Origin: a virus
Taxonomy: Duplodnaviria; Heunggongvirae; Uroviricota; Caudoviricetes
Strand: one strand, 5' to 3'
IMG/VR virus record: IMGVR_UViG_2698536369_000007
Location: 1-6,779 of that record
DNA length: 6,779 nt
Positions 1 through 6,579 of the stretch are shown here, piece by piece. The position numbers and the translations under genes were made by a program. Within the stretch, counting starts at the first letter, position 1. Every line of letters starts with the position of its first letter. Below the pieces are notes generated by a model. It saw nothing but the letters and a program-made list of their open reading frames with translations, was not told the origin of the DNA and ran no database searches.

Positions 1-110
1 GTACTTAGGATAGCCAACCATCAGATGCTGCATTTGCATAGTGCAATCTCCCCTTACTTATCCGGAGGCAATTGCAATATCTCTGTGAACTTACACAGGA
101 GAAGCAGGTT

Positions 111-266
111 ATGAAGCAGCAAAAGGCGATGTTAATCGCCCTGATCGTCATCTGTTTAACCGTCATAGTGACGGCACTGGTAACGAGGAAAGACCTCTGC
201 GAGGTACGAATCCGAACCGGCCAGACGGAGGTCGCTGTCTTCACAGCTTACGAACCTGAGGAGTAA
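111..266 (+). CDS. hokD: Hok/Gef-family type I toxin, 51 aa (HokD/RelF-like)
   Basis: ATG at 111 preceded by GGAG (98-101). Product MKQQKAMLIALIVICLTVIVTALVTRKDLCEVRIRTGQTEVAVFTAYEPEE has one N-terminal TM helix and the conserved Cys-containing tail of Hok proteins. ORF-track ORF 72..266 is the same frame with an upstream extension. Stop TAA 264-266. Confidence 0.85.
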   Translation: MKQQKAMLIALIVICLTVIVTALVTRKDLCEVRIRTGQTEVAVFTAYEPEE

Positions 267-334
267 GAGACCAGGCGGGGGAGAAATCCCTCGCCACCGC
301 TGATGTGTCAGGCATCCTCAACGCACCCGCACTT

Positions 335-361
335 AACCCGCTTCGGCGGGTTTTGTTTTTT
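335..361 (+). terminator. Rho-independent terminator downstream of hok (5-bp GC stem with UUCG tetraloop, then T-run)
   Basis: ccCGC(337-341) ttcg GCGgg(346-350), flanked by A335-A336 and T351-T352, followed by TTTTgTTTTTT (351-361). Confidence 0.7.
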
Positions 362-433
362 CTGGTCGTTCTGGTTTACAATCCATCCGTCAGCCTGAAC
401 AACTGGCACCTGCTGCGCCAGCAGAGAAAACAG

Positions 434-712
434 ATGGCGCACGATACCAAATTTTACAATTCGGATAACTCTGCCGCCCCTGCCAGCAGGCACGGGCGGC
501 GTTCTCATGCATTCAAATCTGACTGGTATCAGCACGACCCCTGCACCGAAGAACAGGCTGAATGGCTGATTCAGTGTTACCGCAGGCGCGGATACGAGGT
601 TAAGAAAGCCCTCAGTCTCGATTATCGTCACTGGATAATCTCCGTCAGGCTTCCTTACTCCGAACGCCCACCGCGTCCGTCCCGCACATTCCAGCAACGC
701 ATCTGGAGGTAA
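434..712 (+). CDS. small hypothetical protein, 92 aa from ATG 434 (alternative in-frame ATG at 305 would overlap the hok terminator)
   Basis: Open frame ending TAA 710-712, which sits 1 nt before the GTG start of the next gene with a GGAGG SD (705-709) inside its last codons, implying translational coupling. Occupies the position of rem in the Qin prophage hokD-rem-ydfU order, but I cannot confirm identity. No recognisable motif. Confidence 0.45.
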   Translation: MAHDTKFYNSDNSAAPASRHGRRSHAFKSDWYQHDPCTEEQAEWLIQCYRRRGYEVKKALSLDYRHWIISVRLPYSERPPRPSRTFQQRIWR

Positions 713-713
713 C

Positions 714-1763
714 GTGCGGGTATTACTTCGACCTGTTCTGGTACCGGAACTCGGGCTGGTGATCGTTAAGCCGGGCCGTGAATCCATGCCGGTATTCCAC
801 AATACCCGGGTACTGGTGGAGCCGGAACCGAAAAGCATGCGTAATCTGCCGTCCGGGGTCGTTCCTGCCGTTCGCCAGCCGCTGGCGGAGGATAAATCAT
901 TACTGCCATTTTTCAGCGACGAACGAGTGATTCGTGCTGCTGGTGGCGCTGGCGCATTGTCTGACTGGTTACTGCGCCATGTTAAATCCTGCCAGTGGCC
1001 ACACGGCGATTATCACCACAGTGAAACCGTCATTCACCGTTATGGTACCGGCGCAATGGTGTTGTGCTGGCACTGCGACAACCAGTTGCGTGACCAGACC
1101 TCCGAATCACTTGAGCAACTTGCTCACCAAAACTTGTCAGCATGGATGATTGACGTCATTCGTCACGCAATGAATGGCACACAGGAGCGTGAATTATCGC
1201 TGGCTGAATTATCCTGGTGGGCGGCCTGCAATCAGGTGGTGGATGCACTACCTGAGGCAGTAGCGCGTCGTTCGCTGGGATTACCAGCGGAAAAAATCCG
1301 CTCCGTATACCGTGAGAGTGACATCGTACCGGGAGAACAGACAGCCATCAGCATACTGAAGCAGCGCACAAAAAATATTGCGCTGCCACTTCACGTCCAC
1401 CAGCAACAAAATCCACCACAGAAAAAAACGGTTGTCAGTATCGCCGTTGATCCGGAGTCTCCTGAATCGTTCATGAGGCGGCCTAAACGTTGCCGTTGGG
1501 TTAATGAGAAATACACGCGCTGGGTAAAGACACAGCCGTGTGCGTGTTGTGGTAAGCCTGCTGACGATCCGCATCACCTGATTGGTCATGGTCAGGGGGG
1601 AATGGGGACAAAGGCCCACGATATTTTCACGCTACCGTTGTGCCGGGAGCACCACAACGAACTTCATGCAGACCCGCTGGAGTTTGAGAAAAAGTACGGC
1701 TCTCAGATTGAGTTAATTTTTCGTTTTCTTGATCACGCCTTTGCGACTGGCGTGCTCGGGTAA
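714..1763 (+). CDS. ydfU: DUF968-family protein (YdfU-like) with C-terminal HNH-like Cys/His cluster, 349 aa
   Basis: GTG 714 with GGAGG at 705-709 (5-nt spacing). C-terminal motif CACCGKPADDPHHLIGHGQGG...LPLCREHHNELH is a zinc-binding/HNH-like signature. Length and position match the nin-region DUF968 protein of lambdoid prophages. Stop TAA 1761-1763. Confidence 0.7.
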   Translation: MRVLLRPVLVPELGLVIVKPGRESMPVFHNTRVLVEPEPKSMRNLPSGVVPAVRQPLAEDKSLLPFFSDERVIRAAGGAGALSDWLLRHVKSCQWPHGDYHHSETVIHRYGTGAMVLCWHCDNQLRDQTSESLEQLAHQNLSAWMIDVIRHAMNGTQERELSLAELSWWAACNQVVDALPEAVARRSLGLPAEKIRSVYRESDIVPGEQTAISILKQRTKNIALPLHVHQQQNPPQKKTVVSIAVDPESPESFMRRPKRCRWVNEKYTRWVKTQPCACCGKPADDPHHLIGHGQGGMGTKAHDIFTLPLCREHHNELHADPLEFEKKYGSQIELIFRFLDHAFATGVLG

Positions 1764-1775
1764 AAGAGGTGACTG

Positions 1776-2135
1776 ATGCTCATAGATTTGGTTTTACCTT
1801 ACCCGCCGACGGTGAACACCTACTGGCGACGTCGTGGCAGCACATATTTTGTATCAAAAGCCGGTGAGCGTTATCGCCGGGCTGTGGCGCTTATTGTTCG
1901 CCAGCAGCGGCTGAAATTAAGCCTGTCCGGAAGGCTGGCGATAAAGATTATTGCCGAGCCACCGGATAAGCGCCGCCGTGACCTGGACAATATTCTGAAA
2001 GCGCCGCTGGATGCGCTGACGCATGCGGGGTTGCTAATGGACGATGAGCAGTTTGATGAAATCAATATTGTGCGCGGTCAGCTCGTTCCTGGTGAGCGGC
2101 TGGGGATAAAAATCACAGAACTGGAGTGCGCATGA
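1776..2135 (+). CDS. rusA: RusA-family Holliday junction resolvase, 119 aa
   Basis: ATG 1776 with AAGAGGTG SD (1763-1770). Product shares the RusA blocks LPYPPTVNTYW / PDKRRRDLDNILKAPLDALTHAGLLMDDEQ / LGIKITEL with E. coli RusA ([30 protein letters not shown]). Stop TGA 2133-2135. Confidence 0.9.
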   Translation: MLIDLVLPYPPTVNTYWRRRGSTYFVSKAGERYRRAVALIVRQQRLKLSLSGRLAIKIIAEPPDKRRRDLDNILKAPLDALTHAGLLMDDEQFDEINIVRGQLVPGERLGIKITELECA

Positions 2136-2821
2136 ATAACCACTATTTACAGTTTGTGCGTGAGCTGCTCATTATCGCTACCGCCGATTTGATTGGGGCA
2201 ACAAAAGGTCAGCTTGAAGCCTGGCAGGAGAATGCCATGTTCGATACAGGGCGTTACAGGCGAAAAAAAATCCGGTACCGCGATGAAGTGACTGGAAAAA
2301 TGATAACGCGGGATAATCCACCAATCCCGGGAAAGCAATCGCTGGCGAAGGTGACGTCAATTCCTCTGGTCAGTCCGATTGAGTTTTCGACATCATCGTG
2401 GCGGCGGGCTGTTCTGTCTCTTGAAGAACATCATAAAGCCTGGTTGTTGTGGTGTTACAGCGGGAGTATTTGTTGGGAATATCAGATCGCGATAACACAG
2501 TGGGCGTGGAATGAATTTAATACTCAATCCGGTACCAGAAAAATTGCAGGGAAAACGCAGGAACGCCTGAAAAAATTAATCTGGCTGGCGGCGCAGGCAG
2601 TAAAAGCAGAACTTTTTGGTGGGGAAGGTTATGAATACAAGGAGCTGGCATTACTGGTGGGAGTGACAACTAAAAACTGGTCCAAAACATTTACTCGTCA
2701 CTGGGTTGCAATGAAACACATTTTTCACCGACTGGATAGTGAGGCTTTATTGTTTGTAATGAGAACGCGTTCAAAACAAAAGGCGGCATTTTCAAAGCAA
2801 AGTGTTGCAAAAGTAGATTGA
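2132..2821 (+). CDS. putative late-gene antiterminator Q (Qin QuuQ / phage 82-type family), 229 aa
   Basis: ATG 2132 overlaps the rusA stop in an ATGA arrangement, with GGAG at 2123-2126 (ORF track gives a GTG start at 2126). Call rests mainly on synteny: immediately after rusA and immediately before a consensus-like promoter and short-transcript terminator. No motif verified by eye. Stop TGA 2819-2821. Confidence 0.6.
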   Translation: MNNHYLQFVRELLIIATADLIGATKGQLEAWQENAMFDTGRYRRKKIRYRDEVTGKMITRDNPPIPGKQSLAKVTSIPLVSPIEFSTSSWRRAVLSLEEHHKAWLLWCYSGSICWEYQIAITQWAWNEFNTQSGTRKIAGKTQERLKKLIWLAAQAVKAELFGGEGYEYKELALLVGVTTKNWSKTFTRHWVAMKHIFHRLDSEALLFVMRTRSKQKAAFSKQSVAKVD

Positions 2822-2833
2822 AAGGCATATATT
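2805..2833 (+). promoter_or_regulatory. sigma70 promoter, candidate late promoter pR' (Q engagement site expected just downstream)
   Basis: -35 TTGCAA (2805-2810), 17-bp spacer, -10 TATATT (2828-2833). The -35 lies in the last codons of Q and the -10 just after its stop. Predicted start near 2840, about 50-70 nt before the terminator at 2885-2913. Confidence 0.5.
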
Positions 2834-2884
2834 TCATGCAAATCTGATATTTTGCCGATTTTGTACGTGATGGCAAAAGCAAAC

Positions 2885-2913
2885 AAAACCCGCCCACAAG
2901 CGGGTTTTTTTGT
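2885..2913 (+). terminator. Rho-independent terminator (tR'-like, ends the short pR' transcript)
   Basis: aaaACCCGC(2888-2893) ccacaa GCGGGT(2900-2905) followed by TTTTTTT (2905-2911). Confidence 0.75.
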
Positions 2914-2993
2914 GCCACTTATCTCGGATAGACATGGTGAATGCGCTGGTGGAGGAAGCAAGGGTAATTTTTAACCAGGTGATTCTTGAATGC

Positions 2994-3022
2994 TTGCAAC
3001 ATTGATTTCGTAACGTTATTAT
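2994..3022 (+). promoter_or_regulatory. sigma70 promoter for the tRNA cluster
   Basis: -35 TTGCAA (2994-2999), 17-bp spacer, -10 TATTAT (3017-3022), then a GC-rich discriminator CCTGCGCC. First tRNA 5' end is at 3032. Confidence 0.5.
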
Positions 3023-3031
3023 CCTGCGCCC

Positions 3032-3107
3032 GGCCCTTTAGCTCAGTGGTGAGAGCGAGCGACTCATAATCGCCAGGCCGCTGGTTCAAATCCAGCAAGG
3101 GCCACCA
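3032..3107 (+). tRNA. ileZ: tRNA, anticodon CAT (Ile2-type that reads AUA after lysidine modification, or Met); ileZ-like phage tRNA
   Basis: 76 nt cloverleaf folded by hand: acceptor GGCCCTT/AAGGGCC, D-arm GCTCAGTGGTGAGAGC, anticodon loop CTCATAA (CAT at 3065-3067), T-arm GCTGG TTCAAAT CCAGC, discriminator A, encoded CCA. Close to my recollection of E. coli ileX. Confidence 0.85.
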
Positions 3108-3114
3108 TCACATA

Positions 3115-3191
3115 CCGCCATTAGCTCATCGGGATAGAACGCCAGCCTTCGAAGCTGGTTTCGCGGGGTTCGAGTCTCCGATGGCGGTCCA
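3115..3191 (+). tRNA. tRNA-Arg, anticodon TCG (reads CGA)
   Basis: 77 nt: acceptor CCGCCAT/ATGGCGG, anticodon stem CCAGC/GCTGG, loop CTTCGAA (TCG at 3149-3151), T-arm CGGGG TTCGAGT CTCCG, encoded CCA. One C:A mismatch in the D-stem. Confidence 0.75.
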
Positions 3192-3204
3192 TTATCGGTA
3201 TTCT

Positions 3205-3281
3205 GCGTTTTTAGCTCAGCCGGACAGAGCAATTGCCTTCTAAGCAATCGGTCACTGGTTCGAACCCAGTACAACGCACCA
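3205..3281 (+). tRNA. tRNA-Arg, anticodon TCT (reads AGA)
   Basis: 77 nt: D-arm GCTCAGCCGGACAGAGC, anticodon stem ATTGC/GCAAT, loop CTTCTAA (TCT at 3239-3241), T-arm ACTGG TTCGAAC CCAGT, encoded CCA. One T:C mismatch in the acceptor stem (3210:3272). Confidence 0.75.
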
Positions 3282-3450
3282 CACTTATTTTCCCTCGCTC
3301 GCTTTTGCGGACCTTTTTTGTATCCGCACCACGCCCGGCGCATACCAACCACAGAGCCTTTCGGGGGGAGCTTATGGAGTGGTCAGTGTGACTTTCTCTG
3401 TGGGCAGATCGCTCCCGGGCGTTGGCTCACCCACCCAAAGGAACGTCACG

Positions 3451-3883
3451 ATGTTTGGTATTTTTGGTAAAAAAAGCCCGCAGAGCGGCAACGGAAATTA
3501 AAAAGTTTGAAAAACGCGATCTGGCACAGGTGGTGATTAACGCCGCATACCTGGTGGCCTGTGCAGATGGTGAATGTGAGGCTTCCTAGAAAGCGAAGAT
3601 CGAACAGGTACTGCGTAATCAGCCTGCGCTGTACGCGTTTACGTCAGAAATTAATGCGATTAGCGCAACCATTATCGGTCAGCTGGATACGAACTTTAAA
3701 ACTGGTCGTCGTGCGGCGTTACGTGAGATCGAGGATGTGAAACACGATACGCGTGAAGCGGAAGATGTGCTGGATGTGGCGGTGGCCATTGCGGAGGCAG
3801 ACGGCGAAATTGAGCCGGAAGAGCGCAAGGTGCTGGAAGAGATTGCCGGTGTTCTGGGTCTTCGTCTGGAGAATTACCTGTGA
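3451..3883 (+). pseudogene. TerB-family (tellurite-resistance TerB-like) gene disrupted by a frameshift in an A7 tract and an in-frame TAG
   Basis: ATG 3451 with AAAGGA SD (3437-3442) gives MFGIFGKK then runs into a TAA at 3499. The +1-shifted frame from the A7 run (3469-3475) reads ARRAATEIKKFEKRDLAQVVINAAYLVACADGECEAS, hits TAG at 3587-3589, then continues KAKIEQVLRNQ...VLDVAVAIAEADGEIEPEERKVLEEIAGVLGLRLENYL to TGA 3881-3883. The two [AV]xxxAxADG...E blocks are the TerB-domain signature. The ORF track shows no intact + ORF here. Confidence 0.6.
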
Positions 3884-4047
3884 CGGTAAAACTGCGCCTG
3901 ACTGTGGCTGCACTCCTGCTGTTTCTGGTGGTGATGGTGGATTTCACCAGCAGAATCATGTCGGTGCTGGCGGATGGGGTGCTGGTCTGCGGCATTATGG
4001 TATTGCTGTGGCCGGTGATAAAAAGAAACAGCCTGCATAATGCTTGA
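3880..4047 (+). CDS. possible small hydrophobic (two-TM) membrane protein, about 55 aa from GTG 3880 (37 aa if ATG 3934)
   Basis: GTG overlaps the TerB stop (GTGA) with GGAG at 3868-3871. Product VTVKLRLTVAALLLFLVVMVDFTSRIMSVLADGVLVCGIMVLLWPVIKRNSLHNA is strongly hydrophobic. Stop TGA 4045-4047. Below the ORF-track size cut-off; no homology recognised. Confidence 0.25.
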   Translation: MTVKLRLTVAALLLFLVVMVDFTSRIMSVLADGVLVCGIMVLLWPVIKRNSLHNA

Positions 4048-4248
4048 TTTTTTTGTTTGCTGTTTATTAAAAACACTTCTGCATGGTGAATCCCCCTGTG
4101 CGGTGGGGCAATCAGCAAGAAGGAATATGGGGTAATCGCGGATTCAGGTGCTGATACTGAATTCACCGGGAGGCACCCGGCACCATGCTTTGCCACAAAA
4201 GTGTTATTTCTGTTTTTCTCAAACTATCATCGTTATCCCTTTATTTTC

Positions 4249-4275
4249 GGCTGCGCATGGCGCGGCCTTTTTTTT
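4249..4275 (+). terminator. Rho-independent terminator upstream of the esterase gene
   Basis: GGCTGCGC(4249-4256) atg GCGCGGCC(4260-4267), 8-bp stem with one G:U, followed by TTTTTTTT (4268-4275). Confidence 0.65.
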
Positions 4276-4361
4276 ACGACCAGCCACTGGCAGATGGTCA
4301 TCCTGTGATTTGATTCCGCTTCCGGCTTTTTAACTCTGTTCCTCTACACGGGAGAAATTCG

Positions 4362-6212
4362 ATGTCGATTAAACATTATGATGTTGTCAGGGCGGCGTCG
4401 CCGTCAGACCTTGCGGAAAAGCTGACACACAAACTGAAAGAGGGCTGGCAGCCATACGGCGGACCGGTTGCCATTACGCCGTACACACTGATGCAGGCGG
4501 TGGCTATTGAAGGAGAGCCACAGGTCGGCCCTTCATCTGAGCCGGATTGGTACTACGTCATCGTACTGGCCGGGCAGTCCAATGCTATGGCTTACGGTGA
4601 AGGGCTTCCGCTGCCGGATTCATACGATGCTCCGGATCCGCGCATTAAACAGCTGGCGCGCCGCAGTACAGTGACGCCGGGCGGGGCTGCCTGCAGATAT
4701 AACGATATTATTCCGGCTGACCACTGTCTGCATGATGTGCAGGATATGAGTACGCTGAATCATCCGAGGGCTGACCTGAGCAAAGGGCAGTACGGCTGTG
4801 TCGGCCAGGGTTTACATATTGCCAAAAAACTGCTCCCGTATATCCCGAATAACGCGGGGATCCTGCTGGTACCATGCTGTCGTGGTGGTTCGGCATTTAC
4901 CCAGGGCGCGGAGGGGACATTCAGCGAGTCCACGGGGGCCAGTCAGGATTCGGCACGCTGGGGGGTGGGCAAGCCGTTATATCAGGATCTGATTTCCCGC
5001 ACAAAAGCGGCATTGCAGAAAAATCCCAAAAACGTTCTGCTGGCCGTCTGCTGGATGCAGGGTGAGTTTGACATGAGCGCCGCCACCCACGCACAGCAAC
5101 CTGCGCTGTTTACAGCCATGCTGACACAGTTTCGTGCTGACCTCTCCGTGTTTAACGCGCAGTGCCATGGTGGCAGCGCTGCAGATGTGCCGTGGGTTTG
5201 TGGTGACACGACGTATTACTGGAAAAATACATACGCTACCCAATACGACACCGTGTACGGCGGGTATAAAAACAGGGAGAGTGAGGGCGTTTATTTTGTG
5301 CCCTTCATGACAGACGGTAACGGCGTCAATACCGCCACTAACGCGCCGGCAGAAGATCCGGATATTCCGGCATCAGGATATTACGGTGCGGCATCGAGAA
5401 CGAATGGAAACCAGGTATCATCAAACCGCCCGACACATTTCAGTTCATGGGCGCGCAGGAGCATTATTCCGGATCGTCTGGCAACCGCTATTCTGAACGC
5501 AGCCGGGCGCACCTCAGCCTTCATCAGTGGTAAGGCACCGGAAATCAAACCCTCGCCCGGCGGCAACACGCCATCGGGTCCGTCTGCAGATACGTCCGTT
5601 CGCACAATCTCCCTGCTGCCGGCAGCCGGAGAGGCTGCTGCGCAGGGCTGGAGCATTAAGGATGGCGGAATTCAGTTGTCAGATGGTGTATTTAAGATCA
5701 CCAAGCAGAGCAATAAAACCTGGTCCCTGACGCATCCGGTGGATGACGCAATTACCCTGCTGACACAGGGCGGCAGACTGACCTGTAAGTTCCGCCTGTC
5801 AGGCGCACTGACCAACAATCAGTTCGGGCTGGGGATTTATCTGTATACGGATGCTCCCGTTCCTGATGGTGTGGCGATGACGGGTACCGGTAATCCGTTC
5901 CTGATGTCGTACTTCACTCAGACCACTGACGGCAGAGTGAATCTGATGCATCACAGGAAAGCCGGAAACACGAAGCTGGGGGAGTTCGGCGATTACGGTA
6001 ACGACTGGCAGACGCTGGAGCTGGTGTTCACCGCCGGCAGTGCCACGGTTACTCCGAAACTGAATGGAGTGGCTGGCCCGGCATTCCAGGTTATAAAAGA
6101 CGGTCTGACACTGGGACTGAATGCGCTGACGCTGACGGATGTTACAAAAAATGCAGCGTATGGCGTTGAGATAGAAAGTCTGGTGCTGGAGATAAATGCA
6201 CCGGCAGCATAA
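4362..6212 (+). CDS. nanS: prophage DUF1737 + SGNH/SASA-family esterase (NanS-p-like 9-O-acetyl sialate esterase), 616 aa
   Basis: ATG 4362 with GGAG at 4351-4354. N-terminal MSIKHYDVVRAASPSDLAEKL...GWQPYGG matches the DUF1737 start. VIVLAGQSNAMAYGEG carries the GQSN catalytic-serine motif (nt 4572-4583) of sialate O-acetylesterases. Size and position (after the tRNA trio and cargo slot, before the lysis region) match nanS-p of Stx-type phages. Stops TAA TAA 6210-6215. Confidence 0.8.
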   Translation: MSIKHYDVVRAASPSDLAEKLTHKLKEGWQPYGGPVAITPYTLMQAVAIEGEPQVGPSSEPDWYYVIVLAGQSNAMAYGEGLPLPDSYDAPDPRIKQLARRSTVTPGGAACRYNDIIPADHCLHDVQDMSTLNHPRADLSKGQYGCVGQGLHIAKKLLPYIPNNAGILLVPCCRGGSAFTQGAEGTFSESTGASQDSARWGVGKPLYQDLISRTKAALQKNPKNVLLAVCWMQGEFDMSAATHAQQPALFTAMLTQFRADLSVFNAQCHGGSAADVPWVCGDTTYYWKNTYATQYDTVYGGYKNRESEGVYFVPFMTDGNGVNTATNAPAEDPDIPASGYYGAASRTNGNQVSSNRPTHFSSWARRSIIPDRLATAILNAAGRTSAFISGKAPEIKPSPGGNTPSGPSADTSVRTISLLPAAGEAAAQGWSIKDGGIQLSDGVFKITKQSNKTWSLTHPVDDAITLLTQGGRLTCKFRLSGALTNNQFGLGIYLYTDAPVPDGVAMTGTGNPFLMSYFTQTTDGRVNLMHHRKAGNTKLGEFGDYGNDWQTLELVFTAGSATVTPKLNGVAGPAFQVIKDGLTLGLNALTLTDVTKNAAYGVEIESLVLEINAPAA

Positions 6213-6213
6213 T

Positions 6214-6521
6214 AAAAAAAGAGCCAGCGACTGACCTGAAAGAAGACGCTGGCTAAAAGGCCTTATATGTTTGTAGAGACTTATTTTTCACAGACAGCAA
6301 TGATGCCTGTCAATATATTATCAATATGCGGATTGTTTCAGTTACAGATGCTTTATTAAGGAAAAAAACAGCCAGCACTGACTTTCGGTGGAGAGGTGCT
6401 GGCTCAGAAGGATAGTTGGATTTCACATGATACTTATGCCTGGCGGTATATTTTCTGACAGACAGTGACGGGTGTTGTCAAGATATTGTGTCATTTATAA
6501 CCTGAATCAGGGGAGGCCGGA
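6214..6521. repeat. two diverged tandem repeat units (about 6214-6360 and 6362-6521), each starting with an A7 run and an 8-9 bp inverted repeat (AGCCAGCG/CGCTGGCT; AGCCAGCAC/GTGCTGGCT)
   Basis: Unit 1: A-run 6214-6220, hairpin 6222-6254, then ...TTATTTTTCACAGACAGCAATGATGCCTGTCAATATATT. Unit 2: A-run 6362-6368, hairpin 6370-6404, then ...TATATTTTCTGACAGACAGTGACGGGTGTTGTCAAGATATT. Stems are conserved with a compensatory G:C to A:T change while the loops differ. On the - strand each hairpin is followed by T7, so they look like intrinsic terminators for minus-strand transcription. Confidence 0.55.
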
Positions 6522-6579
6522 ATGTTATCTGGCATTTTTAGCAGAGCCTGAATGCCATAATCACGGCTCCCGGAGTTGG

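Follow-up and report, generated by a model that had tools for sequence, protein, structure and literature searches.

A common tciA–tciB cassette, with tciA predicted to be a null allele, at the Shiga toxin position of a lambdoid prophage late region, followed by an STnc100-type small RNA gene

The region analysed lies at positions 3282–4361 of a window of 6,779 nucleotides (nt), the whole stretch of DNA under study, which corresponds to positions 1 to 6,779 of the Caudoviricetes record IMGVR_UViG_2698536369_000007 (IMG/VR). It contains, all on the + strand, a pseudogene of the TerB family, tciA (3451–3883), an intact open reading frame (ORF) for a hydrophobic protein of 55 amino acids (aa), tciB (3880–4047), and a small RNA (sRNA) gene of the STnc100 type, related to EcOnc27 and PasD (4052–4275). 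The tciA–tciB module was first named in phage P1. The region very probably holds the usual non-toxin occupant of the moron slot of lambdoid prophages, a pair homologous to that of P1, followed by an STnc100-family sRNA gene with its own terminator. This degree of confidence applies to the explanation as a whole, including the null tciA and the mechanism proposed below.

The tciA pseudogene starts at an ancestral ATG (3451), switches frame at a tract of seven A residues (A7) and ends at a TGA (3881–3883). A conceptually repaired translation of 143 aa was used as the query for the family searches. It matched the Pfam TerB domain (PF05099) with 45.7 bits (cut-off 24.4), PHROG 632 (‘tellurite resistance’) over positions 1–143 of 143 (2e-68) and the TerB entry 2JXU_A of the PDB (phmmer E = 4.1e-8, query residues 14–137; a resemblance in sequence only). 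The hidden Markov model search therefore bore out the TerB assignment made in the initial annotation, which had been based on the letters of the sequence. The phage records with a TciA-like protein of about 143 aa number 131; virulent phages (Erwinia, Vibrio, Pseudomonas, N4-like) are among them. The NCBIfam scan of TciA gave only a sub-threshold match to DjlA, reflecting the TerB-like N-domain of that protein. Membership of tciAB in a defence system was dropped as a candidate after the PADLOC-DB 2.0 scan gave nothing meaningful: the one match of TciA was partial (PDC-S48, 13.7 bits) and TciB had none.

Both lesions described in the initial annotation are present. The A7 tract (3469–3475, + strand) carries a +1 insertion relative to the A6 tract of intact alleles and shifts the frame after codon 8. 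The TAG codon (3587–3589, + strand) replaces the GAG for Glu46 in the frame that runs to the TGA at 3881–3883. This Glu46, at which the product is cut off, is conserved in the first DGx5E TerB motif (the protein has two of this type) and aligns with a Glu of 2JXU. At the aligned positions, the tciA gene of Escherichia phage JLK-2012 has A6 and GAG, and reading from the same ATG gives a protein of 143 aa; A6 was also found in alleles L003 to L006 and L008 of the alignment. When P1 TciA was compared with the window by tblastn, the match broke into a frame-1 piece (3451–3474) and a frame-2 piece (3470–3880). No other disabling lesion was seen 3′ of the TAG. The peptides left are of 16 aa from the ATG or 44 aa from a TTG at 3455, and no intact ORF with both acidic DGx5E motifs was found in the tciA of the window. 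With a TAG in place of the Glu46 codon and a shift of the ATG frame at A7, tciA is regarded as a pseudogene member of the TerB family and, as read from its sequence, is a null allele.

In the two identical copies inspected, the Prokaryotic Genome Annotation Pipeline (PGAP) labels tciA as ‘tellurite resistance TerB family protein’, pseudo, with an internal stop. The TTG (3455–3457) lies 4 nt past the ancestral ATG and opens the post-frameshift frame. Because it masks the frameshift, PGAP gives A7 alleles as having an internal stop only, or as intact. The latter applies to the allele of strain 2013C-4991 (A7 + GAG), modelled from the TTG as an intact protein of 142 aa (WP_106912615.1). Taken by itself, the A7 frameshift may thus leave tciA partially rescued by the TTG, and need not disable it. 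The N-terminus MFGIF(G/K)KK, read from the ATG, is kept in all A6 alleles, diverged ones included, despite synonymous changes there, and P1 TciA begins with MFGKLFGKK. Since the ATG-initiated N-terminus is kept in diverged alleles and in P1, A6 was taken as ancestral and A7 as a derived frameshift.

The 55-aa ORF that had been described as GTGA-coupled and hydrophobic was recovered as tciB, a member of the DUF3927 membrane family. Its GTG (3880–3882) overlaps the TGA of tciA (3881–3883) in the sequence GTGA (3880–3883). TciB matched PF13064 with 60.4 bits (cut-off 25; profile positions 2–50 of 53) and PHROG 1470 (‘TciB-like’) over its full length. Its hydropathy profile has two maxima, at about residues 5–20 and 26–45. 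A GGAG located 8 nt 5′ of the GTG provides tciB with its own Shine–Dalgarno sequence, so that, to judge from these signals, tciB may still be translated. It is annotated as an intact coding sequence in all three copies of the TAG allele that were inspected. Phage 2B8 (L011) has in the same slot a lone tciB-like ORF (361–519; 52 aa, TTG start) without tciA, followed by a PasD-type sRNA and then by the esterase gene. In the phage 434 record, a ‘putative membrane protein’ is annotated at the spot that matches tciB.

The body of the sRNA gene (4052–4224) matched Rfam RF02076 with 100.8 bits (gathering score 47; E about 1e-22) over the whole model (positions 1–206). The sRNA was called from this covariance model together with synteny. 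About 25 nt beyond the body, an 8-pair hairpin (4249–4267) is followed by a run of eight T residues (to 4275); it is common to the PasD-type locus of phage 2B8. It differs from the 3′ terminator hairpin of the RF02076 model, which is absent from the window, those positions being deleted in the alignment. The terminator that had been reported after the small ORF was thus found at 4249–4275, and it probably belongs to the sRNA gene. STnc100 elements scored 141 bits 3′ of stx1B in Shigella phage 75/02 Stx and 107 bits 3′ of tciB in JLK-2012. In Stx2 phages, STnc100 is located 75 nt downstream of stx2B (PMC12370729) and overlaps, in the Stx2-phage copy, the Hfq-bound sRNA EcOnc27 (PMC12711010). 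In phage 2B8, PasD, which is related to STnc100, lies directly upstream of the esterase gene (bioRxiv 10.64898/2026.05.13.724894). The sRNA gene of the window has the same position as EcOnc27 of Stx2 phages and PasD of 2B8, immediately before the esterase gene (PMC12711010; bioRxiv 10.64898/2026.05.13.724894). It is a backbone element and not cargo, and is also found 3′ of stxB in Stx phages. Because it fills most of the region before the esterase gene, the true cargo interval is only about 3282–4050, the remainder of the slot being mostly the sRNA gene and its terminator. The initial annotation had treated the slot of roughly 1.07 kb as cargo; tciAB does lie within it, but about 225 nt belong to the STnc100-type backbone gene, which had been overlooked.

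Two further observations were made around this sRNA gene. The Rfam scan gave no AgvB or AsxR sRNA at E < 1 in the window. In phage 75/02 Stx (L009), a match to AgvB, an anti-GcvB sRNA, barely reached the gathering score (56.6 vs. 56) at 4679–4738 (– strand); it sits right after STnc100, on the opposite strand, between stx1B and the esterase gene. A minus-strand fragment annotated by PGAP as a ‘hypothetical protein’ pseudogene (incomplete, internal stop), which corresponds to 4242–4385 of the window (L001 4961–5104), covers the sRNA terminator and the start codon of the esterase gene and is probably an annotation artefact.

The frequency of the cassette was determined in a set of 5,426 complete Escherichia coli genomes. 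The central part of tciA was found at 1,842–1,936 places in 648–741 of these genomes; the median number of copies in a genome is 3. A 32-nt probe that seeds only if the TAG is present hit 961 places, spread over 576 genomes, and the TAG allele so detected accounts for about half of the copies. The exact 62-nt context of A7 occurs in 554 records and A6 on the same 5′ haplotype in 8; the exact 61-nt context of the TAG occurs in 521 records, vs. 50 with GAG on the haplotype that surrounds codon 46. Matches to the TAG allele or the cassette span O157:H7, O157:H16, O145, O121 and O111, and some of the isolates are of panda, pig, chicken and seawater origin. Over 1,080 nt, many copies are 100% identical. 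The null allele has been moved among prophages by recombination, reaches up to 5 copies in one genome and now makes up about half of the E. coli copies. The genes are, in addition, already named: the labels used for the locus by GenBank and PGAP are ‘tciA/tciB’, ‘TciA/TerB-like protein’ and ‘tellurite resistance TerB family protein’ with ‘DUF3927 family protein’. The tciAB families are filed as ‘moron’ in PHROGs, and TerB (PF05099) and RusA are among the genes that a 2026 preprint on prophage sRNAs gives as conserved near PasA/PasC. Because the cassette is present at about 1,900 places and already carries names and annotations, tciAB is a standard occupant of the slot and not an unusual one.

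The alignment gave three allele states: A6 + GAG (intact, ATG start, MFGIFGKK), A7 + GAG (2013C-4991) and A7 + TAG (window). Intact alleles differ mainly at synonymous sites (synonymous : non-synonymous 41 : 3, 27 : 2 and 42 : 4), from which it follows that tciA is under purifying selection when intact. The substitutions private to the window are six out of six non-synonymous and none synonymous (TciA A27V, E46*, S61Y and H142Y; TciB A8T and V40M), a pattern that fits relaxed constraint on both genes. Two nominally intact alleles also carry changes in the second ADG motif: D117E, plus R125C, in L006 (O145 RM9872, 1395–1826), and A116T in L007 (2013C-4991, 1398–1826). On these sequences, decay of tciA may extend beyond the TAG lineage. 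The description of the gene as ‘currently in decay’ accordingly holds for the private changes, all of them non-synonymous; against it, the null allele is stable and widespread, accounts for about half of the copies and is already annotated as pseudo by PGAP.

Intact pairs were found in JLK-2012, Evi and PPyecE_EH1910, and intact homologues do match TerB and DUF3927. These tciAB loci share with the window the hairpin leader, the STnc100-type sRNA and the esterase flank, with a DNA identity of 88–93%. Their tciA genes are intact (A6, GAG), whereas that of the window has A7, the TAG and the private substitutions. The pair of P1 is more distant. TciA is about 50% identical (tblastn 49.6% over 137 aa, E = 2e-38; 52% for an intact allele) and TciB 49% identical (tblastn 50% over 48 aa, E = 4e-12). 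The two genes are adjacent, on the same strand and in the same order in both phages, with a stop/start overlap (TAATG in P1, GTGA in the window). They also adjoin phage tRNA genes in both, the P1 pair being embedded among them. Unlike P1, the window has no tciC (best tblastn E 0.11 over 13 aa), its pair lies in a lambdoid late operon that is presumably Q-dependent, and its tciA is inactivated. A CRISPR interference screen found the P1 genes tciA, tciB and tciC to be non-essential (PMC10695390); their dispensability for lytic growth fits with prophages tolerating a null tciA. With TerB of terZABCDE (2JXU), TciA shares the PF05099 domain and the repeated acidic DGx5E-type motif. The identity is low, however, no terC, terD or terZ neighbours are present in the window, and the predicted partner of TciA is the 55-aa DUF3927 peptide in place of TerC.

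The conserved cassette opens with a terminator-like hairpin followed by six T residues (3296–3319, + strand). In the alignment of seven loci, conservation begins at this hairpin whatever stands 5′ of it (tRNA, IS3 or regulator gene). The copy in the window is weakened by a C·A mismatch, at which the diverged PPyecE copy has a compensating U–A pair, and it was not called by the consensus scan. This hairpin may end the tRNA transcripts in lysogens. The same crude consensus scan, which can miss promoters, gave no promoter-like site between the tRNA genes and tciA. A conserved RNA structure in the leader (3282–3450, 170 nt) was not supported by RNAalifold over the seven loci (covariation term +0.27, only one pair changed on both sides). 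Because no promoter of its own is recognizable and a terminator-like hairpin stands at its start, the cassette would be read mainly during lytic growth, by Q-antiterminated polymerase from pR′. TciA and TciB would then be made in a fixed ratio, by co-translation through the stop/start overlap. TciB is predicted to form a hairpin of two helices within the inner membrane, where it could dock the soluble TerB-domain protein TciA, as TerB partners the integral membrane protein TerC (Turkovicova et al. 2016, cited in PMC11003894). The pair might buffer envelope or ion stress late in infection, as an accessory function dispensable to the phage.

The window represents the late-regulatory part of a lambdoid prophage; none of the complete genomes matched it over all 6,779 nt, and the best match covered 97% at an identity of 99.0%. 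5′ of the slot it contains, in this order, hokD (72–266), a DUF968 gene (714–1763), rusA (1776–2135) and the gene for antiterminator Q (2132–2821, + strand). The latter is the upstream driver of late transcription; it matched PF06323 (Phage_antiter_Q) with 302 bits and is named ‘bacteriophage antitermination protein Q’ by PGAP in identical loci. A pR′-like promoter (TTGCAA-17-TATATT, 2805–2833, + strand) was found by the consensus scan, followed by a tR′-like hairpin with a T-run (about 2885–2914, + strand; hairpin 2885–2908); the function of both is suggested by their position. The scan scored the tR′-like hairpin on the minus strand, yet the hairpin is symmetric and a run of seven T residues follows it on the + strand. 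Weak resemblances to the Salmonella prophage sRNAs isrK/isrJ, below the Rfam gathering score, were noted at 2837–2910 (+ strand), the region of the short pR′–tR′ transcript, and at 275–356 (+ strand), the terminator region past hokD. Three tRNA genes come next, all on the + strand and all found by ARAGORN, by Rfam and by PGAP on identical loci: tRNA-CAU (3032–3107; tRNA-Ile according to PGAP), tRNA-Arg(TCG) (3115–3191) and tRNA-Arg(TCT) (3205–3281). A promoter-like sequence (TTGCAA-17-TATTAT, 2994–3022, + strand) lies 10 nt 5′ of the first, and the tRNA cluster may therefore own a promoter independent of pR′.

The right border of the slot is the gene for a NanS-p-like sialate O-acetylesterase of 616 aa (4362–6212, + strand; DUF1737, SASA and DUF6645 domains), named ‘SASA family carbohydrate esterase’ by PGAP. 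Where complete genomes carry an identical locus, the genes for holin, endolysin and spanin come next. The holin gene lies beyond the window; between it and the esterase gene there are two copies of a module of about 148 nt (6214–6360 and 6362–6500) and a strong + strand terminator (6578–6604) followed by a T-run; the region that holds them (6214–6613) gave no match to an Rfam family. PasA/PasC sRNAs are placed between the esterase and holin genes by a 2026 preprint.

The order Q, pR′/tR′, tRNA(CAU)–Arg–Arg, cargo, sRNA and nanS-p esterase is that of Stx phages. This late-operon layout had been proposed in the initial annotation, and ARAGORN, Pfam, Rfam and the consensus scan agreed with it from Q to the esterase gene. 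The equation of the slot with that of the Shiga toxin (Stx) genes also proved right, stx1AB being at the equivalent place in Shigella phage 75/02 Stx. An stxAB cassette, like the tciAB cassette, lies 3′ of Q, pR′/tR′ and tRNA genes and 5′ of an STnc100-type sRNA gene and a nanS-p esterase gene (PMC12370729). Phage 75/02 Stx has Q, stx1A–stx1B, an STnc100-like segment and the esterase gene, with no tRNA genes annotated in the record. The tciAB cassette is unrelated to Shiga toxin in sequence and function, and its products are predicted to be cytoplasmic and membrane-located and not secreted.

Several alternative explanations were considered for the state of the cassette. The initial annotation had seen in it an unusual variant of the slot, a rare pair of TerB and membrane ORF decaying in this one prophage. 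The lesions are real and the private substitutions are all non-synonymous, but the census refutes the claim that the variant is unusual: the cassette is present at about 1,900 places, in some 650–740 E. coli genomes, and the null allele at 961 places in genomes of many serotypes and hosts; these copies are no database duplicates of one strain. The genes had moreover been named before. This explanation is very unlikely. Errors in homopolymer length are common on some platforms, and an origin of the lesions in sequencing or assembly, for instance by a homopolymer miscall, was considered as well; the counts rule it out. The exact A7 and TAG contexts recur in hundreds of records and genomes, the 576 genomes with the TAG were assembled independently, and A6 and GAG are recovered cleanly too. 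Decoding of the TAG by read-through or suppression, which would make tciA a conditional gene or one of reduced dosage and no pseudogene, would agree with the high frequency of the allele and with the lack of further disabling lesions past the TAG. It is hardly credible, since none of the three tRNA genes encodes a suppressor (the codons read are CGA, AGA and those of the AUA/AUG type), the A7 shift is on the same allele and the private changes, all non-synonymous, include sites past the TAG (S61Y, H142Y). Recent horizontal spread explains the frequency more simply, because many copies are fully identical over 1,080 nt.

Two other explanations carry more weight. The A7 tract could be no lesion at all if tciA starts at the TTG, as PGAP has it, leaving the TAG as the sole defect. 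The PGAP models described above (an internal stop alone in the TAG copies, an intact protein in 2013C-4991) are in line with such a start, an AGGA Shine–Dalgarno sequence stands 12 nt from the TTG, and A7 is the majority state on the 5′ haplotype. The conserved ATG N-terminus, however, makes A7 the derived state, and the product from the TTG would be a variant beginning with MVFLV-. A TTG start is therefore a plausible alternative, though not the one that we favour. A little less probable, and on the whole somewhat unlikely, is that TciB alone is the functional unit retained, for example for membrane integrity or lysis timing, the loss of TciA being tolerated or favoured. The intact tciB with its own GGAG, its annotation as an intact gene, in the three copies inspected, beside the commonest tciA allele, which is the null one, the lone tciB-like ORF of phage 2B8 and the putative membrane protein annotated in phage 434 would all agree with this. 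Against it, tciB has two private non-synonymous changes and no synonymous one, as expected if constraint is relaxed on both genes, and the pairing and the stop/start overlap have been kept from P1 to lambdoid phages. It is doubtful, and clearly less probable still, that the double-lesion allele became the major one of E. coli not by drift alone but because loss of TciA, with TciB and the sRNA kept, benefits the lysogen or the prophage. If this were so, leaky production of TciA might, for example, carry a cost or disturb co-resident prophages, and TciB would work as a small membrane effector on its own, as in phages 2B8 and 434.

The preferred reading, that of a standard tciAB cassette with a null tciA beside an STnc100-type sRNA gene, has points against it as well. 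The 3′ end of the sRNA departs from the Rfam model, and the sRNA region does not fold into a structure significantly more stable than those of shuffled sequences (z = –1.33). The dependence on Q was deduced from position and a simple consensus scan, and membrane docking and stress buffering are suggested by analogy. The literature searched yielded nothing experimental on TciA, TciB or DUF3927, whose names come from homology. TciB may not need TciA, because 2B8 has a tciB-like ORF alone and the phage 434 record is similar. The 6 : 0 count of private changes is based on six intact reference alleles only. Purifying selection on tciA is not uniform in E. coli prophages, because the nominally intact L006 and L007 show 1 synonymous for 6 non-synonymous changes.

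The locus is thus already known: an annotated and very common cassette with a very common null allele, beside a known sRNA family. The value of the analysis is mostly one of annotation clarity. The tciAB cassette is the default non-toxin cargo between the late-promoter tRNA genes and nanS-p, and its presence does not point to a new moron. The 300 nt or so in front of the esterase gene are no cargo; most of them belong to the sRNA gene, which should be taken as the right border of the cargo slot in comparisons of Stx and non-Stx prophages. The ‘internal stop’ label of PGAP conceals the second lesion of tciA. It is mildly notable that, in a gene otherwise under purifying selection, about half of the copies share two lesions, and that one genome often has several such prophages. 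This population pattern of the null allele could offer a handle on the role of TciA and TciB.

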